A stretch of DNA of 64,000 nucleotides from Tricharina praecox (taxonomy: Eukaryota), in assembly GCF_024521635.1 (NCBI RefSeq), contig NW_026250415.1, forward strand, positions 434,001 through 498,000. The letters are read 5' to 3'. Positions 2,457-62,646 of this stretch are shown here, piece after piece. A model generated the notes under the pieces. That model did not search any database, was not told the DNA's origin, and worked only from the letters and a program-made list of their open reading frames with translations. Position numbers and translations under genes: made by a program. The stretch's first letter is position 1. The number at the start of each line of letters is the position of its first letter.

Positions 2457-4894
2457 TGCTGGTGGAGGTGGTGGGTGAGGGAGGGGTGGGTGCATGGAGT
2501 GGGAGGAAAAGGGTAGAGTGCGGCGCACTCCTACCCAGTCCGCCCAGACGGAGGGATCCAACGACTGCCGCCATACTACCACCACTACACCCCACTGACT
2601 ACCACTACATACAATTACCTCTACCACTACCCATTACTACTACCACTACCACCACTCACCATAGTTACCACTACTACCCTCCATACCACCTCCACTGCTC
2701 CCGTACCACTACTATACTCTCCGTACCACTACGCTCCATACCATTCATTCATCGCCCTTATCACGTCCTATCGGCGTTTGGGCTTTCCGATGGGTGAAGG
2801 TCCGGCGGCGTGTGCGTGTAAGTACGTGTGCGTTGAGGAAAAATTGAGCTGAGATATTGGCGATCCCAACTGTAACGAGCACATTGCATGTTGGTCATAG
2901 GAGGAGTCGGAGGAAGGAAGGGAGGCCTCTCTTGGTTCGGGACTCGGGAGTGCCCTAATCAGGCATCAAGGGGAAAAATCCCCATAGCTGTGCTTCGGAG
3001 GTTGGTCAAAATGGTGATGAGGCGAAGGAAATTGGTCATCATTCCCTCATGCGAGGCGGGCGGGTTCTTCAAGGAGGCAGGGAAGTTCTTCAAGGCACAG
3101 GGAGAGACGCGGAGAGAGGGAGAAGGCGGAGACGGGGGCGAACAGCAGGAACAGCAATTGCTGGTGCTGCAGCTCAAGGCACTGCGCACAGCACAGCTCA
3201 GCGGGCCCAACGGACAGAGCAGATTCTTCCTGGCCGACCCAGCTCATTAACTGTGAATGGCCGCCCAGGCATGCGTCGTCGGAAGCGATCCGCCAACATA
3301 GCCAGTACTTACCTCACTCTAGTGCCGAACAGCAGATGGTGCATCATCGAAACCCGAGCAAGAGAGAGAATAAGACACTCCATGCGGGCCTAACTATTCA
3401 TACATACTCGCTCGCGTGTTCGGGATCGTTATAGCTACGGAGATCAGATTCGGCATCTGATCTCGAACGGGGTGGTGATGGCGGCGGTGGTAGTAGTGGT
3501 GATGGTGGTAGTGGTGGTAGTGCTCGGCCACAATGCTACGGCGGCGTACACGTAGAATGCCTCCCTCCACAGATGGGGTCAGAGCGCGCGCTTCGCTTTC
3601 CAATGAATACCACCACCGGCGAAAGAGCTATGGTCGATTGACATGCACAGTGAGTGGCATTTGGTTGCATCAGACGCCACAAGTGACAGGAAAAAAGGCG
3701 AGAGTTGTCGTGTTCGAGGAGAGGAGACAGGCGGTTGGTTTGGTTGGTTGGTTGGTGGTGGAAGCGAGCTGGGGGCATCGTATCCAGACCAAACCCACGG
3801 ACCCTTTGAGCGAGTATGAAGTTACCGTAGTTAACCAAGTTGCACTGCCAACCCACCACCCTGTGTCATCCTCCTCCTCCATTCGCGAGCAGCGCTCTGT
3901 GGAAGTAGTAAAAAATAAAAAAATAAAAAACGCTGTACTCCCGATTAGCCGGACATCGAGTAGGGTCGATACCGTACCCCTTCCTTCCTTCCCTTCCCTA
4001 CCGTGCTCCATTGACTCTAGGGGCAAATCTGTGGATCTACGCAGGTGAGTCCGATTGATGTGATGACATGCGGCAGTGCAGTGCCTACTCTACTCTAGTA
4101 TTTGATGAGACAGCAAATATTCCTATGTACCAGCTGGCGTCAGTGCAGTACTATATCTACTATAGAGCACGTCTGTATGTACTTGCCGCCGCCGCGCAAC
4201 CTCAGATCTCTCCTGCGACGCGCATAGAGTAGGTACCAGACCGCTCGGGTCACAGCCCAGCGCATCATCGTCATCGTCATCGTCGCCGTCGTCGCCGTCG
4301 TCGACTTTATCATCAGCATCATCACCATGATCATCATCATCACTTAGCCACCCCCCCCCCTTCCCCCCGGCGCTCGCCAGGGCTTTCGCCATCCCGTCCG
4401 TCAGGGCGGGCAGGGCCGACGTGTATGTAGAGCTCCCCTCTGCAGTTCATTGCAGGCCTCACATTTAAGATCTCCATAATATCATAGTTGCGGGTAAACG
4501 CCCCCCCAGCCTCCAGGCCCCTCCCCCTTGTAAGTTACATACTCCTGGTTCAGTGGTTACCTAGGTTACTCCTTTTTTGAGTGATCGTCCCCAAAATAGC
4601 CTGCGTACACCGCAGTGCGGTGCGGAAACCGAAAAAACAGGGGTTTACATATGGTACTCTAGGTATGGTATGGTACTCTAGGTGCGGTCGATCTCGCGAG
4701 TCGCAAAACACCAAGACCCAGACCCAAAACCCAAGAACCTTATCCTTTGCATCTTCGGTAACTTGAGGGGTGAGTGGGTGAATGGGGGTGGGTGATACAT
4801 AGAGTGCAGTGTAGGTAGTGCACGGCGGGCCGGGAGGGAGGGAGACAGGAGAGAATGTGATGGTAATGGTAAAGGCAATGGCATGGGCAATGGC

Positions 4895-4975: not shown

Positions 4976-7900
4976 ATGCAAAGGGCATTAGGGGTAACCA
5001 CTTCCCTATTTGACTTGACTGGCGGTACAATACGCGTACATGTGTAGAGTACGGGTGGCCCGGTGCGTAAGCACTGGATTTGAAGGCAAAGAACGTCTGC
5101 CTGGATATGGCACATCTGATAGGGAGGCGGGCATTCGGGCGGGCATTCGGGCCTGCAGGAATACCTAACAAGTGGCTGACTAAATTGGCCACCCCGTCCG
5201 TCCGTCCATCCGTCCGTGCTGCCGGTCCGAGTCCCTTCTTCGCAAGCAGTCCATCTATCCAGTCCTCAGTCCAGTCCATCTATCCGGGGGAGAAGGGGTG
5301 GGGGGGTGGGGGGGCACTGCACCCACTGGACGAAACAATCCCAACCATGCGCATGGCGTGCAATTCAGCTCTCTTCGTCTTCGTTTTTGAGGGGGTCAAA
5401 CCCGAACGGACGTCGGATGGTGATACAGGAATAATCAAAAGTAATAAACTATAGTAGATATAGTAGCAGTACGCAGTGAGTAGAGCAGAGCAGATCAGAG
5501 TAGAGTAGAGTACGGAATGCATGAAATAAAGGAGCGAGCCTAGAACTTTGAACTCCGCACGCCATACAATTCCATCTACATCTCTAAACTGAACCAAATG
5601 TTTCCTCCACGAAAGAAAAAAGAAACGAAAAGAAAAGGAATAAAAAGAAAAGAGAAACCGACAGAAATCCAGACAGAAAATCGAAAAAGAAAGGAAAAAA
5701 AGAAGGAAAAACACCCCCTCCTCCCGCCCGCCCGCCGGCCGGACCGGACCTTCACAGAAACGGCCGCAGATATTAGACATGACATGACGACGACAGCGAC
5801 GACGACAGCGACAGCGACTACATAGAGCACACGGTCAGATACGGTACCGCTTAGCACCAACCGATAACCAACCAACCCAACCCAACCCATCCATCAATCG
5901 CGTCGGATGATCATGGGTTCATCATGGGTTCATGGATTCATGGACTGTCTGGCCTCCACGTTCCGTACCGTACCTAGCTGTCCATGGTGAACCTACATAT
6001 CTACACACACACATACAGACACGTTCCGCTCTTGCCCCCTAGGCCGATTCGGGATACATACCGACCCATCCCATCCCCATCCTGCCTGCCTGCCTGCCTG
6101 CTCCAAGCAGGCAATCTGTCCGATCATGATCGACGGCAAGCGGTGAAATGAACACCGATACTCGAGGCTTCCCGGGGGGGGCTGTTCCAGCACACGCAAT
6201 GGGTTGGAGTAGCGATCACGATTGCAGTTGATATTGATATCCCGTGCGGGCGGCGGCCAGCCTCTTTTCTGGGGCACTTGGCCCGTCCGGGTAGGTGGGC
6301 CAAGCAGCTAGAGTGGAGTAGAGTAGAGCACTAAACCATACTCCACTGGTAGATATCTGGGCAAGCACTCTATTATTTCGCTAGCGACCCTTCCGAAAGG
6401 GTAGCAGCCGCCGCCTCCGCCGCCTCCGCAGCAGCAGCAGCAGCGTTCCGCCCTGCTACATACTCGCGTCGGTGAGGTCGCTCGTGGACGCAACACGATC
6501 CGCGTCCCACCTGACATCGGAGCGGACTCTGCGGAGTGGAGTGGAAACGGAAGAGGAAGCAATTTCTTGACCTCACGCGCGCCAGTCTTGTGGGTGGGTA
6601 CATTACGACATAAATGTTCTTTTTTCTACATAAACATGGAACACAACTCCTTCCTGATGGTATCACAGAGAGTAGATGTGAAATGCCTACCCAAGTAAGT
6701 ATGATATCCAAATACTCTACATACCCTACACGGGGGGGTACGTACCTACTTCGATGTAGAGTACTGGGAGAGCAGGTGTGCATGTAGTTACTCTACATAC
6801 TGTACTCTACTATACACAGTGCTGCGCGTGCAGCATGTATGTACCATCCTGCATCGCTGTCACCGATCACACATCTCCCAGAGATATCCCTGGACCCCAC
6901 CCGCCGCCGAGGAGAGCTGGCAGCACCGGCATCTGCACTGAGCATTTCAGAGTGTGCGGCAATCTTGCGTATGGCACTAACCCGCATTCGCTGCCCCCGA
7001 CTAACCCACTGCCCGATTGGGATCGGGGGGTCGGATTCGCTCCGCTCAAATAATTGCTTCGCTGCTTTCGCTAGTGCCTGCTCCAAGCGGCGGCCGGAGC
7101 CTCGCCCTCCCCTCAGGCCCCAGGCAGATCATGCACGACAGCCCCTCTCCCAGAGAGCGAATCGAGTCGTCGATTGGGCGCAAGCATCACGAGGGCGATA
7201 CCGCTGCATTCGATATCTGGGAAATCCGCCGAAATTCTCCCGAGACGCACGGCCGGTCATCTACTCACCAACACGGACAACAGAAAACGGGGTGCCCACC
7301 CCTAACAGCGTCCACACACGGGCACTACCCTAGGTGAGTGGCAAATACTCTACATATCCACACACACTCACAGCACACTCACGCTCACACTCTCAGCGCG
7401 CTCACTCTCAGCGCGCTCGAGCTCACTCAGCGCTCAATCCATGAACGGCATCATGATTCGCCCCCCCTCTCCGCCCCGGACCGCACCCTACTGGAAGAGC
7501 AACATCTTCACTCCGCCGCCGCCCATCTCTCTCGGCCACCACCCCCCATTCACTCTCTATCTTTCTCCCTCTCCTGGACAGCCCCCCCCCCTCCCATCGC
7601 GCTCGGCGGTCAGAATTCCACTCGTGGCTAATGCGCGCTCAACCATATGCGAAGGTACATAGAGTACTTTGGAGCACCTCGCTCCGCTCAACAATAATTC
7701 GACTTGTTTGGTTTACCCGGTAGCGTCGTTGCTGGGGGGCGGGGGGGAGGTCGCGCGTCCAGGGTTCGGATCAGCGAGCGAGCGAGTGAGTGAGCACGGC
7801 TGGGTCACCGAGTCACGCATGCTTGCGGGTCGGCTTGGTTGGCTGAGAGCGCAAGTTGTCGCGGACCGGAGAGCATGAACGTGGCAGGTGGAACCTCCCT

Positions 7901-21910: not shown

Positions 21911-24900
21911 ATGAGAAATCACTCTCTGTGCTTCCCCCGGGCGTATGCCACTACGGGTTTGGCTTTCCTACATGGCCGGCGGCCGTGCTTTCCAGGTGGT
22001 AGTGCCATCTCTGCGCTGCCGCGTACTCGGCAACTAAGTGGTCATAATAAAAAGGCACAAACACCAGACGACCCAGTATGGTTCCTTCTGGCAGATGCAC
22101 ATATCGGCGTCAAGACGATGCCGCGTCTCAATACATTTTTTAGCAAGCATTTCTTTCCAGAGTTCGAGGCACAGCGGCCATCGCAAGTCCTGTTTCTGGG
22201 CGATACGTTCAATATCCGTGGAGCTACGGATCCGGCTCATCACCGGTTTTTTACTGATGTGTTGTTCCAGATCACCACGGCGAAGTGGGCACCGCTGGTT
22301 CATCTTTTGGTCGGGAATCAGTGAGTCTTTTCGTTCCGATTTCTGCTCTTGTTCTAGGTGAGTAAGTTGAGTGCTGACCAAGGGATTGCTAGTGATATGA
22401 AAAACCGCTTCAATCGACAAGACAACTCGGTGTACCCCTTCAGTCTCGCCTCAGGCAAGGTGAACGTGTACTCCGAAACCACATCAAACACATTTGATAA
22501 TGTCAAGACGGTGTTCATACCCTACCACATCGATGACAAGACTGTGCGGGAATACATTTCCTCTACGTCCTCATCCGATACAGTGGCGTTCTACCACGGC
22601 CCGGTGAACGGCGCCGTTATGAACAGTCACAAGCTGTGCGAAGACGCAGAGGTATCTCCCGGTCACCTGAAGAAGTACAAACATGTCTTCCTGGGCCATT
22701 TCCACACGCACGGCCCGGTCGGTGGGGAGAAGTCGAGAGTCGTGTACGTGGGCTCTCCGATCCAGTCGAACATGGGCGATGCGGGGGACACAGCCCGTGG
22801 ATTCATCAGCTATCGTCCACGTGCGAACTCCTGGGTCCTGCATCGGAACCCGCATGCCGAGTATTTCGTAAAGATACCGTGGAAGGGACTTGCAAATGTC
22901 GATGAAGGTCAGGTTGCGGGGAAAAAGGTACAGCTATCAGTTAAGGACGATATTCCGGCCAGTGAAATCGGCAAGGCACGAGATGCTTTGTACCAACTCG
23001 GTGCGGAAATGGTGGAGGTATGGTACAAGAAGGCACCAGTACCTAAGGCGGAGTCACAAGAGGTCCTTCCAGACGATGTTGCCATCAACCCCGAAGCAGT
23101 AGCGCTTACGGATACTGTTCATGATCTGGTCAACTCCTTCATGGATGCTCGGGCCGATGCAGGGGTCGAAGTCGACGAGGTACGAGAGGCCGAGCGGAAG
23201 GCCTTCTTCCTCGACTTCATCAAACCATATCAGCAACATTCAGCCCATGCACAGGAGGGAGCAAAAGGTGGTGTTTTTCAGGGCGACTTGGAATCCATAG
23301 AGATGTACAACTTCCGTGGGCTCAAAAATACGACCTCATTCCACCTCGATAGCATGCCTCCCTCCGAGGTGTTTTTGGTTTCTGGTGCGAATGGGTCTGG
23401 AAAGTCAACGCTCATCGACTCCATAGGTAATTCCAGTTCCGGACCCGGTATCAATGATAGGGATTAACGGGCTGCAGTGTGGTGTCTATTCGGCGAATTC
23501 GTGGCCACCCGAATTCCAGTGGAGGAGATTTCTTACAACAACGCCTCCGAATGCTACGTGCGACTACGTTTCCGCAACGGTTACACCTTCGAGCGGTCAC
23601 GGCGCGGAGGAGGGAAAATCAAGAAGGTGACATTCAAGATCTTTGGGCCGGATGGAGAGCTACAGGAACATGGACACGACGCTACAACGAGTACTAAATA
23701 CCTGGTTGACAACATCCTGCATATGGATCTATCCATGTTCAAGCAGACTGTAGTGATCGGTGATAATGCGGAGTATTTCGTGCGTGCAGCGGGAGACAAG
23801 GGGAGGACCGAGTGTTTGGATGCGATGTTTGGGCTGGATTTCTTGAGAGATATTAGAGATGAGTTGACGGAGATGTCGAAGGTATTTGCCCTTCTCGCTG
23901 GGAATACGGACGACTGCTGATTTGTTGCCCGAAATAATAGGAATTGACGCGTGAAGTGGCGGAAGCTAAAGCCACCAGCAGGGAGGTATCTCTGCAACTC
24001 GTTGAAAACCAACGGCAGTGGGACTCCCGGCAGCGCGAGATGTCTGACGAAGCCACTCGGGCAGAGACCCTAGAACGAGAAAAAACCATCCTGGCCGTAA
24101 AGCTCGAACACCTCCGTCCTCAAAGGCTTCAACTCGACGAGGTCATTGCCCAGAAGCGAGCATTGCTTGACGTCGTTGATAGCGAAAAACACCATATACT
24201 TGCCATCATTGAGGGATTCTCCAACAGGAATCGGAAATATCGGGCGGCGGCGAAGGAACATGAACAGGTGCGCAAGAATCGGGATGAGTTTCTACGGAAG
24301 CAGCATGCGGATGAGAGAAAGGCGCAGGAGGCAGCGCGGAAGGCACAGGAGGCGGAGATGAGAGATGCGCAGCGGCCAGTGCGGATCTTACTCTCACTCG
24401 TTAAGAGCTTGTGGACGAGCTTAAGGGACATGCTCGGACTGCCGCCAGCTGTTGTCGAAGAAGGTAACCTACCCCAGCTGCTGGATCCATTGACTGAAGG
24501 TTAACATCGCTCCCAGAGAATTTACCAAAGACGCACAACCAGCAACCCTCCCCTCCATTCTACGACCAACATCTCCACGAGTACATCAATAAAAAGATAG
24601 AAGCCGTCGATAGTATCACCTCCACTCACCAGCGCCATCTCCAGCAGGTCCTATCCCGCTCAACTACCATGACCCAAGACCTCAAAGTCCCTCTCTCACG
24701 CGCCCAACAACTAGACCAGGAGCTCTCATCCATAGAAAGGCGCATCTCCTCCTCCTCAGGCCAGCTCCGTCTCATCGCCTCCCAGAAAGTTGGACACCTC
24801 CGTAAAATTGCCGCATTTTCAGCCCGGGACATCCAGCTGCAAGAACAGCTGTCCTCATCCAATAGAGGGCTAGAAGTGAAAGAGCACCGTCTCGACCTAG

Positions 24901-49329: not shown

Positions 49330-50616
49330 CGTCGTTTACTTCTGAGGAGCGGGGAGGGGGGGGGGGGAATGCTGGGGGAGACGGGGGTGGGGGGAGGTGA
49401 AGATATGGAAGATCGAACGAGTGCTGATGAGCAAACGAAAGGCGAGTGCGTGCGAGTGATGTCGGGTCTACCCAAAACGAACGGCGCCCGGAATGGTGCA
49501 TATCGGGCTGTAGGCTTCAGATGGTTAGATGCCACGACTCCCGTCGGGATGCGGACACCCTGCCTGGGAAATTTCGGTTCGTGCGTGCGGTGGGACTATT
49601 GGCCGACGTCCTGGAGGAGATATTTCCGCTGGCTTCGATAACTATCGCGCCGGATCAAGCGTCAAACGAAATCGATCGTAATCCGTTGGTCATGTAATAT
49701 TGCTAACGGCTCATGCATGTGCTCGCACCGAGCACCTGACCGATTAGGCTACACGTAAAGACTATGACACTATAGTCTCTGACAATATAGGTAGTGGAAG
49801 CCCCTCCGGTAGAGAAGAATACTGGTTCCATGGTTCGCAACAGTCAGCCCTGGGCATGTTAGCAGTTGTTCGATAACGGATTGCTTTTTTCGGACACAGA
49901 ATCTTCACCTGAATGAAATCAGTGCTTTCAAGGCTGGGACCATGGTGTCTACCAGCCGCGGGGCGGCGAATGACGGCTGATGATACCGGTTCTCTGCCGT
50001 GGCTTGGGTGTCTTCGCTTTCAGCCATCTAGTACCTTGTATACTGTTGACTGTGATCCGAAGGAGAATGAGGTTCGTAACCTGGGTATCGGCTCAAGGAG
50101 GCGCTGCAGCAGACCGCATCACCAAAGTCTGGGCATGGGCCCTACTATGTATACCAGCATGGAAGTACTACATGCTGCATGTATTTTGTGATCAGTGGCG
50201 TCGAGGAGCCACAGAACATGCACTCAGACAGAGGAAAGTATAGATCGCTGTGTAGCAGTGCCACTTTCCTTTCCTAGACTTGTAGCCCTGTCGCCACGGC
50301 GAGCATACAAAATAGCCTAGACCCACATCCTAGCTAACAAACATCGAACCATCCCGCAAAGCTACAGCCCTCACCCATACAAGCACGTAATCCACTTCCA
50401 GTCGCATACCCAAAAGAATCTTCAAACTGATATCGCAACCGCACCATATCATAAACGTAGGCATGCTCTACCGACACAAGCATCCAGCTCTGCATAGCAG
50501 TAGCATCCCAAAGAGCAACAGAGACTGTCAGATCACGCCATTTGGCTCAAATTAGCATGATTATCATAGCGGGAACTAAGGTACGAGAGTAGCACCCACG
50601 CGCTCTCGGTTCCACC

Positions 50617-53600
50617 CTAGGCTTGAGGTCCATCGTCACGCTGCCAGGTCGAGTGACTTTGAAGGACTCTGTCAGATTGTTCGCCAAACGGTGCAGCTGG
50701 ATGCACCGCCGCCGGTGACGTCGGGTTGTGAGAGGCTAGTTCCCTATAGAGTCAGGCCAAACAGGCACCACTTAGCCGCCGTCATCGACATTTCCAGATC
50801 AGAAGGACTCACTTTCTATCGAATCAAGCCAAACAGGCACCACTTAGCCGCCGTCATCGACATTTCCAGATCAGAAGGACTCACTCTCTATCGAATCAAG
50901 CCAGGCAGGCACCACTTAGCCGCCGTCATCGACATTTCCAGATCAGAAGGACTCACAAGCTATCGAATCAAGCCAAACAGGCACCACTTAGCCGCCGTCA
51001 TCGACATTTCCAGATCAGAAGGACTCACCGGCTATCGAATCAAGCCAGGCAGGCACCACTTAGCCGCCGTCATCGACATTTCCAGATCAGAAGGACTCAC
51101 AAGCTATCGAATCAAGCCAAACAGGCACCACTTAGCCGCCGTCATCGACATTTCCAGATCAGAAGGACTCACAAGCTATCGAATCAAGCCAAACAGGCAC
51201 CACTTAGCCGCCGTCATCGACATTTCCAGATCAGAAGGACTCACTCTCTATCGAATCAAGCCAAACAGGCACCACTTAGCCGCCGTCATCGACATTTCCA
51301 GATCAGAAGGACTCACCGGCTATCGAATCAAGCCAGGCAGGCACCACTTAGCCGCCGTCATCGACATTTCCAGATCAGAAGGACTCACAAGCTATCGAAT
51401 CAAGCCAAACAGGCACCACTTAGCCGCCGTCATCGACATTTCCAGATCAGAAGGACTCACTCTCTATCGAATCAAGCCAGGCAGGCACCACTTAGCCGCC
51501 GTCATCGACATTTCCAGATCAGAAGGACTCACTTTCTATCGAATCAAGCCAAACAGGCACCACTTAGCCGCCGTCATCGACATTTCCAGATCAGAAGGAC
51601 TCACTCTCTATCGAATCAAGCCAGGCAGGCACCACTTAGCCGCCGTCATCGACATTTCCAGATCAGAAGGACTCACAAGCTATCGAATCAAGCCAAACAG
51701 GCACCACTTAGCCGCCGTCATCGACATTTCCAGATCAGAAGGACTCACTCTCTATCGAATCAAGCCAGGCAGGCACCACTTAGCCGCCGTCATCGACATT
51801 TCCAGATCAGAAGGACTCACTCTCTATCGAATCAAGCCAGGCAGGCACCACTTAGCCGCCGTCATCGACATTTCCAGATCAGAAGGACTCACTCTCTATC
51901 GAATCAAGCCAGGCAGGCACCACTTAGCCGCCGTCATCGACATTTCCAGATCAGAAGGACTCACTTTCTATCGAATCAAGCCAAACAGGCACCACTTAGC
52001 CGCCGTCATCGACATTTCCAGATCAGAAGGACTCACTCTCTATCGAATCAAGCCAGGCAGGCACCACTTAGCCGCCGTCATCGACATTTCCAGATCAGAA
52101 GGACTCACAAGCTATCGAATCAAGCCAAACAGGCACCACTTAGCCGCCGTCATCGACATTTCCAGATCAGAAGGACTCACTCTCTATCGAATCAAGCCAA
52201 ACAGGCACCACTTAGCCGCCGTCATCGACATTTCCAGATCAGAAGGACTCACCGGCTATCGAATCAAGCCAGGCAGGCACCACTTAGCCGCCGTCATCGA
52301 CATTTCCAGATCAGAAGGACTCACTTTCTATCGAATCAAGCCAGACAGGCACCACTTAGCCGCCGTCATCGACATTTCCAGATCAGAAGGACTCACTCTC
52401 TATCGAATCAAGCCAGGCAGGCACCACTTAGCCGCCGTCATCGACATTTCCAGATCAGAAGGACTCACTCTCTATCGAATCAAGCCAAACAGGCACCACT
52501 TAGCCGCCGTCATCGACATTTCCAGATCAGAAGGACTCACTCTCTATCGAATCAAGCCAGGCAGGCACCACTTAGCCGCCGTCATCGACATTTCCAGATC
52601 AGAAGGACTCACAAGCTATCGAATCAAGCCAAACAGGCACCACTTAGCCGCCGTCATCGACATTTCCAGATCAGAAGGACTCACTCTCTATCGAATCAAG
52701 CCAGGCAGGCACCACTTAGCCGCCGTCATCGACATTTCCAGATCAGAAGGACTCACTTTCTATCGAATCAAGCCAAACAGGCACCACTTAGCCGCCGTCA
52801 TCGACATTTCCAGATCAGAAGGACTCACAAGCTATCGAATCAAGCCAAACAGGCACCACTTAGCCGCCGTCATCGACATTTCCAGATCAGAAGGACTCAC
52901 CGGCTATCGAATCAAGCCAGGCAGGCACCACTTAGCCGCCGTCATCGACATTTCCAGATCAGAAGGACTCACAAGCTATCGAATCAAGCCAAACAGGCAC
53001 CACTTAGCCGCCGTCATCGACATTTCCAGATCAGAAGGACTCACAAGCTATCGAATCAAGCCAAACAGGCACCACTTAGCCGCCGTCATCGACATTTCCA
53101 GATCAGAAGGACTCACCGGCTATCGAATCAAGCCAAACAGGCACCACTTAGCCGCCGTCATCGACATTTCCAGATCAGAAGGACTCACCGGCTATCGAAT
53201 CAAGCCAGCCAGGCACCACTTAGCCGCCGTCATCGACATTTCCAGATCAGAAGGACTCACTCTCTATCGAATCAAGCCAAACAGGCACCACTTAGCCGCC
53301 GTCATCGACATTTCCAGATCAGAAGGACTCACCGGCTATCGAATCAAGCCAGGCAGGCACCACTTAGCCGCCGTCATCGACATTTCCAGATCAGAAGGAC
53401 TCACAAGCTATCGAATCAAGCCAAACAGGCACCACTTAGCCGCCGTCATCGACATTTCCAGATCAGAAGGACTCACTCTCTATCGAATCAAGCCAGGCAG
53501 GCACCACTTAGCCGCCGTCATCGACATTTCCAGATCAGAAGGACTCACAAGCTATCGAATCAAGCCAAACAGGCACCACTTAGCCGCCGTCATCGACATT

Positions 53601-55851
53601 TCCAGATCAGAAGGACTCACAAGCTATCGAATCAAGCCAAACAGGCACCACTTAGCCGCCGTCATCGACATTTCCAGATCAGAAGGACTCACCGGCTATC
53701 GAATCAAGCCAGGCAGGCACCACTTAGCCGCCGTCATCGACATTTCCAGATCAGAAGGACTCACAAGCTATCGAATCAAGCCAAACAGGCACCACTTAGC
53801 CGCCGTCATCGACATTTCCAGATCAGAAGGACTCACTCTCTATCGAATCAAGCCAGGCAGGCACCACTTAGCCGCCGTCATCGACATTTCCAGATCAGAA
53901 GGACTCACTCTCTATCGAATCAAGCCAGGCAGGCACCACTTAGCCGCCGTCATCGACATTTCCAGATCAGAAGGACTCACTCTCTATCGAATCAAGCCAG
54001 GCAGGCACCACTTAGCCGCCGTCATCGACATTTCCAGATCAGAAGGACTCACAAGCTATCGAATCAAGCCAAACAGGCACCACTTAGCCGCCGTCATCGA
54101 CATTTCCAGATCAGAAGGACTCACCGGCTATCGAATCAAGCCAGGCAGGCACCACTTAGCCGCCGTCATCGACATTTCCAGATCAGAAGGACTCACTCTC
54201 TATCGAATCAAGCCAGGCAGGCACCACTTAGCCGCCGTCATCGACATTTCCAGATCAGAAGGACTCACTCTCTATCGAATCAAGCCAGGCAGGCACCACT
54301 TAGCCGCCGTCATCGACATTTCCAGATCAGGAGGACTCACAAGCTATCGAATCAAGCCAAACAGGCACCACTTAGCCGCCGTCATCGACATTTCCAGATC
54401 AGAAGGACTCACAAGCTATCGAATCAAGCCAAACAGGCACCACTTAGCCGCCGTCATCGACATTTCCAGATCAGAAGGACTCACCGGCTATCGAATCAAG
54501 CCAGGTGGACACCGTTTAATGGGTATCAACACTGCAGTGGTGGTGGCTGACTTACTTTAAGTCGTAGCGTCTAGAAAATGAGATCACATTAGCACCCCCT
54601 ATTTCTCTCTCCAGGGACATTCTTGGAGAATTCACTGCTCAGTTTGCTCGACCACCACATGCCAACGGCGGATTCGCATGAGCGCAGTTGCCTCATTCTG
54701 AGTCGCGTCTGCTGGAGCCTGAGCGCTGTCGTCTTCTGAAAGCTCCGTGATTCGCGGCTCTGACGATACTTGAAACCACGTCCCACAGATGGTACTTTGG
54801 GAAACACATGATAGTTTAGTATGGTAGAATCGCAACATCATCCGAAGTGTAGGTACCATCGAACCCGTTCAAGGTCATTGCCCTTGCCGTAGCCTCTATA
54901 CGCAGTGCGGCAACTAGGACACTCCTGTTCTGTTCCTCGAACCGGGTCTTGCTGCTTTTTCAGTCGCATAGACATGGAAAGGGTCTTGCCTGGTGATATG
55001 GTGTCTTCCCAGCTTGCCGGGGTAATCATTGCGGCGTTGTTATCTTCATCGAAGATTGCAAATGATTTGCTTTCAACCCACACGCTTTCCCGCCCGCCCC
55101 GGAAGCCTCCCCGTACTGCTTCGTGAAAGGCCTAGTGTATTGTAAGGTTCATACTTGACTGAGTACGCTTCGAACGAGGCTTGTACAAACCTCCCATGTA
55201 ACGCACCACTCGTACGGGAGCGTCATTTTTCTATCGAACGCGTCTACAAATCTGATGGGCTTGTTGTCGCTCCAATTATCAAGGCTTTGCGGAACTTGTG
55301 GCCGTTGCATACTTTGCAAGGCGACGCACATGTCTTCAATCCGATGCAAAGCTTGCCTGTAAACGTGAAAGAACCCGATTAGATCATGCATCGTCAGCGG
55401 CGGATACTGCCATCACCCACGCATTGTGAACGGCCAACAGCATCTCTATCGCTTCGATGTGCCCTTGGAGCCGGCGAAACAGCTCACTCGTATCGGCCTT
55501 CAGGCCCCCCCACTTCAGCTTTCGTGATGTATCTTTCACCTTCTTCCCCGATCCTCCTGGTGAAAGACTGGCATCGTATTTCTTGGTGATTTCGTCAAAA
55601 TTCCGTAGAAGCTGAGAACACTCGCTAAGGTGTTTCTTTGCCGCATTGGTGAAGGATTTCGGCATGGAGCTGGGTTTCGGGGACTGGAATTCAGCCTCCA
55701 CAATGGCAATGGTCGTTCCGAGGGAGCCCCGTATGAGCTTCAGAGTCTGGTAATTGGCGGAAGACCCTGTGCTGTCCTGGAGGCAGGCATATGCTTTGAT
55801 CGCGACATTGCTGGCGGCGATAAAATCGCCGATGCCGAAACCGAAAGACAT
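50617..55851 (-). CDS. HeLo-like-N (fungal STAND N-terminal type) + ubiquitin-like + Cys4 Zn-ribbon protein with 52 codon-sized microexons (58 exons, 442 aa if all included)
   Basis: Exons 55851-55421, 55356-55191, 55131-54857, 54794-54636, 54570-54556, 52 x 3 nt (54487-54485 ... 50815-50813, period 72), 50743-50617: 1329 nt, open throughout. N-terminus MSFGFGIGDFIAA...LSECSQLLRNF...RKLKW; IRFVDAFDRKMTLPYEWCVTWE...WEDTISPGKTLSMSM; CPSC...CTIC. The first four exons are secure; the microexon part is predicted from splice signals. Confidence 0.8.
50744..54555 (-). repeat. 72-bp tandem array: 69-nt intron + 3-nt microexon units (52 microexons, 53 flanking introns)
   Basis: Minus-strand unit GTGAGTCCTTCTGATCTGGAAATGTCGATGACGGCGGCTAAGTGGTGCCTG(TT/CC)TGGCTTGATTCGATAG followed by AGA x20, CTT x17, CCG x10 or AAA x5. 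Confidence 0.95.
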
Positions 55852-56421
55852 TGGAGGCGACGTCTAGGCTCAACGGTAGCGTGGTGGACTGTAGGTGGTG
55901 GTGGTGGTGGTGGTGGTGGAGTGCAAGGTGGTGGACTGTATCTTTGCTGCTGTTCTGTGGGCGGGGAAAGAACACCGCGGGGCCCGGGCGAAAATTCGGT
56001 ATACACTTATTTTTACTGCCGTGAGGGGTATGTATCTCGGCCAGTTTCACAGGATGTTGCATGAGTGCGGTACTGGTACATACTGTCCAACACGGGTTAC
56101 ATGATGATTGGCGCCACCAAGAACATTCACGGCTGACACTGCGTGTTTTCCGTCTACGGGCTCATCATCAAAAGACACAAAATAAACACGGTAGAGCCAA
56201 TGGACGACCTGTATACGCAAGCGCTCTCTTGATGCTTCGTCCGCTTTCGCCGATTGCAATAACTGCCTTCAGAAATCGAGATGTTCGTCCTATCATATCA
56301 ACTAAGTGAAGTGACTCCGACTCCTGTGCCCCGAACAGGTTTACACTCCGAGTCCGTCGCACTATGGCTCAGAAGTACCTCAAACAAAAAGCTCTGGGGC
56401 TGGTCATCACAATGGTTTCAT

Positions 56422-60327: not shown

Positions 60328-62646
60328 ATGACACACCCGACTCCGCCGCCGGCACCCAAGTTCACCCACACGCCGGATTCCGTCATCTCCAACACCAAGC
60401 GTATCATCGAGTCATCGCGTACGGTTCAAGACAAAATCACGAAGGAGGTCACACCCGACAATGCTACATTTGGCGCCGTCCTCGAGCCGCTTGCCATCGA
60501 CGAGAACCACATGGGTCTTGAGGCTGCCATCCTCGGCTTCTACCAGCACGTCAGCACCGACAAAGTACTTCGTGATGCCAGTAGCGAGGCGGAGAAGCTT
60601 CTGGACGTTTGTTACCCTCCCCGCCCCCCCCCAGCTCTCGATTCGATGTGGTTGATTGATGTGTGGGGTTGGTTAGGACTTCGGCATCGAATCCTCGATG
60701 CGTGAGGACATCTACAAGCTTGTGTCGGCCGTCTACAAGGCGAACAAGGAGAAACCGATCGACGAGAGTCCTGAGGCTAGGCGTCTGCTCGAGAAGATGA
60801 ACCAGGATTATGAACGCAACGGATTGGGACTCTCAGAGAGTGATCGTGCGAGATTCAAGGAAATCAAGAAGGAGCTTTCTCTCCTGAGCATCGACTTCTC
60901 AAAGCGGCTGGGTGAGGAGAACGGCGGTATCTGGTTCAAGCCCGAGGAGCTCAAGGGTGTACCGGAGGATGTGATCTCTACATTCAAGAAGGGTAAGGGG
61001 GAGGACGAGGGGAAGTTGTTCTGCTCATTTAAGTACCCCGACCTTTTCCCCATGATGAAGTACGCCGTCAACCCGGAGACGCGCAAACAGGTATGTGCAT
61101 CATGGCGGGCCTTATGGAATGGAGATAGAGAAACCACTTTTATGCTCACATCCAGTGATAGGTGTTCTTAGGCAACGAGAACAAGTGCAACGACAACGTC
61201 GACCTCTTTCGCAAAGCCATGAAGCTTAGAGATGAGAAGGCACGCCTACTAGGCTTCAAGTCGCATGCCGAATTTCAGCTGGCTACCAAGATGGCTAAAA
61301 CTCCCGCAAAGGTGATGGAGTTCCTGAACGACCTCAGGTCCCGGCTACAGCCTGGAGGAAAGGAGGAGATCCATGGATTGAGATCCCTCAAGAAGGCTGA
61401 TCTCAAGGAGATCGGGTTACAAGATGACGGAAAGTACTACCTTTGGGATCACAGGTATGTCATGGTTGAGAGTTTGCTGCAACCTCATGGCTGATGGAGT
61501 CAGGTACTACGACCGCCTTTTGCTCGAGAAGAAATATCAACTCGATGCTCAAAAGATCGCTGAATACTTCCCTTTGACGCACACCATCGACGGCATGCTC
61601 AAGATCTTCGAGGTTCTATTCGGTCTAGAGTTCGTCGAGGTAACTGATGATAGCAAGAACGTGTGGCACGAGGATACCAAGCAGTTTCGCGTCTATAACG
61701 AGAAGCCCTCCGACGGCAGTGAGCAGACTTTTGTTGGTTGGCTTTACTTGGATCTGCACCCCCGAGATGGCAAGTACGGTCACGCGGCCAACTTCAACCT
61801 TCAGCCCGGCTTCACGGACGAGAACGGAAAACGCCACTACCCTGCCACCGCGCTGGTCTGCAACTTTTCCAAGCCGACACCAACCAAGCCGTCCCTTCTT
61901 AAGCATGATGAGGTGGTCACGTTATTCCACGAGCTGGGACACGGCATTCACGACCTTGTAGCTATCACCAACTACTCTAGGTTCCACGGTACGAATGTTG
62001 TCCGGGACTTTGTTGAGGCCCCCAGTCAGATGCTCGAGAACTGGTGTTGGACGGTATCCGAGCTCACATCGCTGTCAAGCCACTACAAGACGGGCGAGAG
62101 TATCCCCAAGGATATGATTGACAACATCATCCGTACCAAGAATATCAATGCGTCTCTCTTCAACCTCCGCCAGCTCCACTTCGCCTTCTACGACATGAAG
62201 GTGCATGACCTCGCCACACCAGAAGACGCTGAGAAGGTCGACCCCACTTCTGAGTACAACAACCTTAGGACGGATATCACCATGCTTGACCCGCCGAAGG
62301 GAATGGATGACCACTTCGGACATGGAGAGGCGACTTTCGGTCACTTGATGGGCGGGTACGATGCTGGTACGTCTCAAAGGAATTCACACATTGTTCCCCG
62401 TGCTTGAACTGACGAAATTTCATAGGCTATTACGGCTACCTCTGGTCGCAGGTGTTTAGTACCGACATGTTCTACACAGCTTTCAAGAAGGCGCCTATGG
62501 ATGCCGCTACCGGAAGGAGATACAGACATGCTGTGCTCGAGAAGGGTGGAAGCAGGGATGAGATGGATAGTCTGAAGGACTTCCTTGGACGCGAGCCGAA
62601 CAGCGATGCGTTCTTTGAGGATCTTGGACTAGGAAAGAAGGCTTAA
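60328..62646 (+). CDS. M3A metallo-oligopeptidase (thimet oligopeptidase/saccharolysin Prd1/MepB-like), 5 exons
   Basis: FYQHVSTDKVLRDAS, YERNGLGL, YLDLHPRDGKYGHAANF, HDEVVTLFHELGHGIH (HExxH), [49 protein letters not shown]. Confidence 0.95.

Follow-up and report, generated by a model that had tools for sequence, protein, structure and literature searches.

Does a tandem repeat that fills the 3' side of a fungal gene encode anything, and if so, how is it read? The question is raised by an array of near-identical 72-base-pair (bp) units in Tricharina praecox (Pezizales, Pyronemataceae), located in contig NW_026250415.1, positions 434,001 to 498,000 of the forward strand. These 64,000 nucleotides (nt) are referred to as the window, and all coordinates given below are positions within it. 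On the minus strand, each unit of the array looks like a short intron followed by exactly 3 nt. The array adjoins exons of BZA05DRAFT_399219, a minus-strand gene for a hypothetical protein, which was identified by a protein search with a 100% match over exon 1. We conclude that, very probably, each 72-bp unit is a complete short spliceosomal intron plus a 3-nt exon, and that the array forms the 3' part of BZA05DRAFT_399219.

The 72-bp array

Tandem Repeats Finder detected a single long-period array in the window (50744-54503; period 72, 52.2 copies, 95% matches, 0 indels), and a 72-bp unit in 52.2 copies falls within the minisatellite range (units of 10-100 bp, many copies). The minus strand has 52 occurrences of GTGAGTCC, with exactly 72 nt from one to the next in all 51 intervals. 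The unit is composed of 3 variable bases and a 69-nt stretch that starts with GTGAGT, contains GGCTAAG about 27 nt before its end and terminates in GATTCGATAG. Read as splice signals, the 52 units give consecutive exons of exactly 3 nt between short introns, 51 of them 69 nt long and the first 68 nt, all GT...AG. The triplets ahead of GTGAGT are AGA (20 units), CTT (17), CCG (10) and AAA (5). Only columns 0-2 of the unit, i.e. the triplet, and columns 54-55 vary more than once, the latter being TT in 27 units, CC in 23, and GC and TC in 1 each. Column 12 carries a single substitution in 1 of the 52 units, and columns 60, 64 and 67 deviate in unit 52 alone, where they belong to the unique end of the last intron. 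The first array intron (54555-54488) starts with GTAAGT and has a unique 5' half and the shared 3' end (...CTGGCTTGATTCGATAG), while the last (50812-50744) has a repeat-type 5' part and a unique end (...CCTGACTCTATAG). The minus strand of the window contains the pattern AG-NNN-GTRAGT 54 times, the array accounting for 52 of these, and the plus strand contains it once. The unit count, period, triplet tallies and array edges given in a first-pass annotation made from the letters alone were all reproduced exactly.

The dinucleotide in columns 54-55 is coupled to the triplet located 15 nt downstream, the observed association being reached by 0 of 5000 permutations. CC is followed by AGA (16) or CCG (7) and never by CTT or AAA, and TT is followed by CTT (17), AAA (4), AGA (4) or CCG (1). 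Coupling to the triplet 51 nt upstream is weaker and was matched by 95 of 5000 permutations. The CC form looks like the first array intron and the TT form like the last. There are hints here that the two unit types may have descended from two ancestral introns.

Spliced transcripts across the start of the array

Public sequencing runs were searched with the unique upstream flank (54480-55900). Two runs from two studies, X1 and X2, were found to contain the flank (0.70 and 0.69 of the sampled words, respectively), and nothing was detected on the flank in X3 and X4, two soil metatranscriptomes of the same study. X1 and X2 each yielded one contig on the flank, of 1294 nt (X1) and 1235 nt (X2). 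Over 1080 aligned nt the X1 contig agrees fully with the window. That of X2, a run with a different organism label, has 1 difference, in exon 1. Both contigs skip 55357-55420, 55132-55190 and 54795-54856, each of which starts with GT and ends with AG in the minus-strand sense, indicating that the contigs represent spliced complementary DNA (cDNA). Beyond the exon 4 donor at 54636, they continue in loose ends of 195 nt (X1) and 132 nt (X2) without a match in the flank. The first 30 nt of these ends, when reverse-complemented, read ACGCTACGACTTAAA followed by CCG CTT CTT AGA AGA in X1 and by AAA AAA CTT AGA CTT in X2. ACGCTACGACTTAAA is the 15-nt exon preceding the array, and the X1 triplets are those of array units 1-5 in genomic order. 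Since the 15-nt exon is followed in X1 by these triplets in order, the message contains five or more consecutive 3-nt exons joined by splicing.

The gene is thus transcribed from the minus strand, introns 1-4 are removed, the 15-nt exon is used and microexons 1-5 are included in order; the other 47 microexons are probably included as well. The proposal of the first-pass annotation that the units represent genuine introns and the triplets genuine exons is borne out by these two spliced contigs, each of which carries the 15-nt exon and five triplets. The same cDNA contradicts the two RNA outcomes which that annotation had named beforehand as refuting, namely minus-strand transcripts that end before 54570 or splice out the array without any included triplet, and transcripts that are exclusively plus-strand and unspliced.

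Several points weigh against extending this reading to the whole array. X1 and X2 are recorded just as guessed RNA, their status as cDNA being given by the three intron joints. The triplet evidence amounts to 15 nt per run, with a further 165 nt (X1) and 102 nt (X2) of the loose ends unseen, and past triplet 5 it is conceivable that the transcript runs into an intron or skips forward. Removal of the last intron and use of the terminal exon are predictions from the sequence, and a protein search with the terminal-exon translation gave no match. Only the first few triplets might therefore be used, most of the array being retained, removed as one long intron or located past the transcript end. 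This we regard as quite improbable. It would agree with the five triplets visible per run, with the deposited gene model, which ends in a CTT unit, and with the fact that no protein containing the terminal exon was found. However, the loose ends extend 180 nt (X1) and 117 nt (X2) past the 15-nt exon, every unit has the same strong signals as the five spliced units, and the array of a metagenomic relative (L001, see below) keeps the 3-nt spacing through at least 10 units despite indels in its introns.

Structure of the host gene

All parts of the gene lie on the minus strand. The coding sequence starts at ATG 55851 in exon 1 (55421-55851), which encodes a helical N-terminal domain, is present in the spliced contigs of both runs and is 100% identical to residues 1-143 of the deposited protein (P0001, 350 residues). 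The 5' untranslated region reaches at least to about 55919, as the X1 and X2 contigs extend 19-23 nt past 55900. Intron 1 (55357-55420; GTGGGT...ACAG, 64 nt) is seen as a joint at 55355/55420 in both contigs, with CT..AC on the plus strand. Exon 2 (55191-55356), supported by the contigs and the gene model, encodes the beginning of a ULD_2 ubiquitin-like domain and is followed by intron 2 (55132-55190; GTTTGT...CTAG, 59 nt; joint 55130/55190 in the cDNA contigs). The remainder of ULD_2 (Pfam PF22893) and the first CxxC of a zinc ribbon are encoded in exon 3 (54857-55131), also present in the contigs. After intron 3 (54795-54856; GTACCT...AAAG, 62 nt; joint 54794/54857 in both contigs), exon 4 (54636-54794) contributes the second CxxC and an acidic linker, and both contigs depart from the genome exactly at 54636. 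Exon 4 closes after codon position 2, and if it were left unspliced a TGA would come immediately. Intron 4 (54571-54635; GTGAAT...TCTAG, 65 nt) is removed, as the loose ends past 54636 open with the 15-nt exon (54556-54570), which is also used by the deposited protein (...QRYDLNL).

The array follows. Its first intron (54488-54555, 68 nt) is spliced out in the contigs of X1 and X2. The 52 microexons of 3 nt and the 51 introns of 69 nt between them occupy 50813-54487, microexon i lying at 54487-72(i-1) down to 54485-72(i-1); these units were counted on the sequence, with microexons 1-5 seen in X1 cDNA and the others presumed. The last array intron (50744-50812, 69 nt) is predicted from the sequence, as is a terminal exon of 127 nt (50617-50743) which is in frame with the chain and ends with the stop codon TAG at 50619-50617.

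ULD_2 (PF22893) was detected in P0001 with an E value of 2.8e-22 (79.2 bits versus a cut-off of 24.5), and the host protein contains a CxxC...CxxC zinc ribbon. Neither NACHT nor ankyrin was found in it, Pfam yielding ULD_2 alone, in agreement with the earlier statement that the host gene lacks a NACHT domain. Exon 1 had no Pfam match at E values up to 1. Among 41 family members scanned against Pfam, ankyrin was present in 3 and NACHT in none. PF17111 (PigL_N), presumably the former 'fungal N-terminal domain of STAND proteins', matches 11 of the 41 homologues aligned over the N-terminal region.

The deposited protein includes the 15-nt exon, then reads into a CTT unit and stops in the intron (...RYDLNL*). 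The deposited model of BZA05DRAFT_399219 is thus cut off inside the array (54380-54636), and the public protein lacks the tail.

Reading phase and predicted tail

Joining exons 1-4, the 15-nt exon, the 52 triplets and 50743-50617 gives a single open frame of 442 codons, as the first-pass annotation had stated for the spliced product. The 15-nt exon, like exon 4, closes after codon position 2, so that a codon of the chain takes its first 2 nt from the end of one microexon and its third from the start of the microexon that follows. The triplets are codon-sized, not codon-aligned; a microexon supplies position 3 of one codon and then positions 1-2 of the codon after it. The proposal that the array diversifies a protein segment residue by residue holds in one part only. 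Variability of the tail is supported by the X2 series and by proteins of a relative (see below), but the diversification would not go residue by residue, the frame being offset by one base.

In the phase of the chain, the four triplet types can give only the residues E, D, L, F, R, K and N, and no order or subset of them produces a stop or a frame shift. Of the other phases, the codon-aligned one would give a Pro/Leu/Arg string and the third contains stops. With full inclusion the tail would have 53 residues (E 11, R 10, F 9, D 9, L 8, K 4, N 2) and a net charge of -6.

Homologous arrays and single-triplet paralogues

Metagenomes were scanned with a 62%-identical protein (P0002) as the query, and eight loci were fetched. 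One of them, L001, which is 62% identical in exon 1, shares the exon structure and has a small exon of 12 nt followed by a homologous array of at least 11 units that extends to the contig end. The array introns of L001 are 67, 68, 71, 70, 71, 71, 71, 70, 71 and 70 nt long, and all 10 complete units have exactly 3 nt between AG and GT (CAT GAG AGG CCC CCC CCC AGG GAC CCT CCT). The variable intron lengths and the constant gap suggest that indels are tolerated in the introns but not in the exon. Identity between T. praecox and L001 is 80% for the array intron, 54-67% for the four ordinary introns and 68-76% for exons 1-4; the short exon is barely alignable between the two. The counterpart of intron 4 in L001 (11624-11682) opens with GCGAGT instead of GT and is either a GC-AG intron or a read-through that ends the protein 9 codons later; if it stays unspliced, the L001 array would be untranslated.

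The L001 array also bears on the possibility of a 24-residue repeat protein encoded by the T. praecox array on the plus strand (50580-54560 or 50750-54550), where frames are open for 1326 and 1266 codons and all three minus-strand frames are closed inside the array. Frame length is no evidence here, because the frame of an exact 72-bp repeat is either open throughout or closed in every unit. No in-frame ATG lies upstream of the repeats, Pfam gives summed low-complexity scores with 0 stretches passing alone, and the cDNA is spliced in the minus-strand sense. In L001 the longest frame across the array, on either strand, is 92 codons, since its periods are not multiples of 3. A plus-strand repeat protein was therefore rejected, its probability being close to nil.

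Comparison of 16 units from four loci revealed conserved blocks at the donor, the CTAA motif and the last 17 nt. A structured RNA or snoRNA in the array intron was considered and rejected. An Rfam search of 50500-51500 gave no match at E values up to 1, the same 16 units had no conserved fold (alifold consensus -0.73 kcal/mol), and the array intron folds no better than its shuffles (z-score -0.05). As neither a conserved fold nor an Rfam match was found, the constraint on the array intron looks like one on splicing signals.

In two paralogous loci, L004 and L007, two homologous introns surround a single CAT triplet, and the same intron-CAT-intron sequence was recognised by eye in L005 and L008. 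This arrangement can be the minimal form from which arrays have grown by tandem duplication. The duplicated segment would start in one intron and end in the next, which would explain the unique outer halves of the first and last array introns of T. praecox. A second AG-TAT-GT(G/A)GGT was noted upstream of the small exon in L004 (~2545-2560) and L007 (~3440-3450), its flanking intron resembling the array intron; these loci may hold two separate single microexons.

Other features of the fetched loci were noted. In L002 (~5200-6100) and L003 the paralogue is broken after exon 3 by a sequence read by eye as an integrase-like (retrotransposon) protein, and exon 4 was not found there by tblastn. The regions 2186-3373 of L007 and 624-1811 of L008 are pseudogene-like, with in-frame stops in exon 3 and an inverted segment carrying exon 2. 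L007 (5525-5888) and L008 (3963-4326) further contain, some 2 kb downstream of the gene, an unrelated tandem repeat of 73/149 bp (4.9 copies, 79-87% matches). In Pyronema omphalodes, another member of the Pyronemataceae, a 37% identical homologue (P0005, KAI5819695.1) has a short Gly/Leu/Arg-rich tail after a conserved RRW motif, and the 3' end of its gene model may be worth suspecting for microexons.

Variability of the tail

The X2 triplet series is unlike that of X1, yet is built from the same triplet types. The simplest reading is that X2 carries a rearranged allele of the array, which is likelier than skipping of exons.

The best match to the host protein in the representative library, P0004 (56% identical, 433 residues), belongs to a cluster of three proteins of 433, 430 and 437 residues, all from short assembled transcripts. 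Residues 1-357 are identical in the three, and the differences are confined to the C-terminal tail. One of these, PQEEELADL versus PQEDLWELELADL, is impossible by a codon-aligned indel, whereas a 12-nt indel after codon position 2 yields it, and this is the phase of the T. praecox microexons. The remaining two require more than simple triplet loss. That the tail of the P0004 cluster may be microexon-encoded is only a lead, drawn from these sequences. The P0004 tail (85 residues) is charged and Leu-rich, like the T. praecox tail in make-up. In a predicted model of moderate quality (mean pLDDT, the predicted local distance difference test score, 68.6), P0004 has a four-helix N-domain; residues 350-387 are of low confidence and residues 388-424 form one helix (pLDDT 66-83). 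A PDB fold search with this model gave no match at E values up to 0.001, and weak ubiquitin-like matches only (best E 7e-3). In three queries of transcript-derived proteins, none with the full T. praecox tail was found; the exon 1 query returned 3 proteins, 0 with the tail, and the query with the P0004 tail matched P0004 and P0001 alone.

Alternatively, the microexons may be real and regulated exon skipping may be the main source of tail diversity, one genome giving many isoforms. Because all splice sites of the array are identical, any donor may pair with any later acceptor, and every subset is in frame and free of stops. The X2 series can indeed be obtained from the window array as a subsequence (units 25, 31, 34, 35 and 40), and skipping is how papers citing the work on the Tuber nank genes describe those genes. 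However, a first jump over 24 units (~1.8 kb) would then be needed as the dominant form, and the exon 1 base difference and other organism label of X2 suit a different allele better. In each run the start of the chain is spanned by one unbroken contig, although rare variants are lost from contigs, and two of the three tail differences in the P0004 cluster are beyond skipping alone. We consider skipping unlikely as the main source of tail diversity, X1, the sole series comparable with the genome, showing its five visible triplets in strict genomic order.

Comparison with known systems

Arrays of 3-bp mini-exons have been described in the nank (NACHT-ankyrin) genes of Tuber melanosporum (Iotti et al. 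2012, Fungal Biol 116:261), according to citing papers, in which the mini-exons number 'dozens' or 'tens'. The precedent named in the first-pass annotation thus exists, at least as those papers present it, but the annotation's description of the T. praecox array as much larger is not supported by these figures. A 2026 paper counts the Tuber nank arrays among lineage-specific strategies. The two systems share many consecutive 3-bp exons which are located in the C-terminal part of a Pezizales gene and included in the mRNA, and both are thought to diversify the protein end. They differ in that the T. praecox host has neither NACHT nor ankyrin and belongs to the Pyronemataceae rather than the Tuberaceae. 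Alternative splicing, moreover, is central to the Tuber report, whereas in the T. praecox array the X1 series is in genomic order and that of X2 probably comes from another allele. In its workings the T. praecox array resembles the Tuber arrays, but its host gene belongs to a different gene family and the species to a different fungal family.

The high-internal-conservation WD40, ANK and TPR domains of fungal NOD-like receptors (NLRs) are reported to be reshuffled by unequal crossing-over (PMC9815663, PMC13449251). With these the array has in common near-identical tandem units with few hypervariable positions. In the NLR repeats, however, the whole unit of 30-40 residues is coding, whereas in T. 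praecox 69 of 72 bases are intron and one residue is encoded per unit.

In recursive (ratchet-point) splicing of long animal introns, a 3' splice site adjoins a 5' splice site and the intron is removed stepwise. The array shares the adjoining sites and, as proposed below, stepwise removal, but ratchet points leave nothing, whereas each T. praecox step would leave 3 nt and the segments are ordinary short introns.

Single 3-nt microexons of animals are reported for Drosophila homothorax (PMC7392893), MAP4K5 (PMC8632122) and RPS24 (PMC12207440), among others. They have in common with the array that 3-nt exons can be recognised and spliced, but they are isolated between long introns, in contrast to the tandem chain with identical short introns in T. 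praecox. In the literature searched, no array of 3-nt exons other than those of Tuber was found, only single animal microexons.

Proposed mechanism and origin

Short fungal introns are usually recognised by intron definition. The signals of the unit, i.e. the donor GTGAGT, the acceptor GATAG and, about 27 nt ahead of the latter, a branch-like CTAAG motif, would make each array intron self-sufficient, to be recognised across the intron and removed singly, leaving 3 bases per removal. The 15-nt exon and the 127-nt terminal exon would thereby come to be linked in the message by as many as 52 triplets. Simultaneous occupation of splice sites just 3 nt apart is hardly feasible, which makes stepwise removal probable, the upstream exon growing by 3 bases per step. 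Identical units would favour pairing of a donor with the nearest acceptor, which agrees with the ordered X1 series.

The array itself may be regarded as a homogenised minisatellite, grown by tandem duplication from an ancestral intron-triplet-intron form. Unequal recombination or gene conversion among the 72-bp units probably reshuffles it and may be the main source of variation between strains. The C-terminal tail of this ULD_2 protein would then be the fast-changing part of the gene, perhaps a loosely constrained appendage.

A broader interpretation, which we put forward only tentatively, is that the array is a heritable 'peptide-writing' device in Pyronemataceae, one residue per unit, whose tail is rewritten by recombination and perhaps skipping and serves as a determinant of self/non-self recognition or partner specificity, in a ULD_2 protein whose relatives have an N-terminal domain of a type present on fungal NLR/STAND proteins. 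Strains would then differ in tail length and sequence, the remainder of the protein being fixed, and the conservation of the array intron would reflect selection for accurate splicing without help from the exon. Several observations weigh against the mechanism and origin proposed above. Read in the T. praecox phase, the L001 triplets would give a Pro/Gly-rich string, i.e. the tail is not conserved, and this, together with the GC-starting intron of L001, argues against a specific conserved function of the tail. The T. praecox tail has no clear amphipathic periodicity. Higher-order blocks of unit types were not found beyond chance (the longest repeated run, 4, was reached by 425 of 1000 shuffles), and the recombination history can therefore not be read from the array.

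It is also possible that the array is spliced as described but is a neutral runaway minisatellite, tolerated at the C-terminus because it is frame-safe, with a tail that has no role. The tail content is wholly different in the two arrays (charged with Leu/Phe in T. praecox versus Pro/Gly-rich in L001), the paralogues manage with one triplet, and the units are near-identical, as in a young expansion. Neutrality is countered, though not strongly, by the P0004-type tail, which has a similar make-up over 85 residues and a helix at 388-424 in the predicted model, and by the array intron being more conserved than exons 1-4, likewise not a strong point.

Other open frames in the window

An open frame at 61382-62407 on the plus strand matches Peptidase_M3 (E 2e-90), and another at 22358-23467, also on the plus strand, matches the P-loop start of SMC/AAA_29-type ATPases (E 5e-7). 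None of the ten window frames scanned looked like an NLR-type gene.

Implications

With up to 52 of the smallest workable exons, identical signals and no room for exonic enhancers, the array offers a test bed for pure intron definition, and it could reveal the order in which neighbouring introns 3 nt apart are removed. To the Tuber case it adds a candidate ancestral form and comparative evidence that the 3-nt spacing is constrained, the one-triplet paralogues giving a plausible path for the origin of arrays. Its occurrence in another family of the Pezizales and in an unrelated gene, together with the metagenome relative and the one-triplet paralogues, shows that the 3-nt exon device is older and wider than thought. 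Since 3-nt exons are beyond what standard aligners can place, the annotation of such genes is probably wrong in any genome that has them. A tail that differs between strains, as suggested by X2, would represent a new kind of hypervariable protein segment in fungi.

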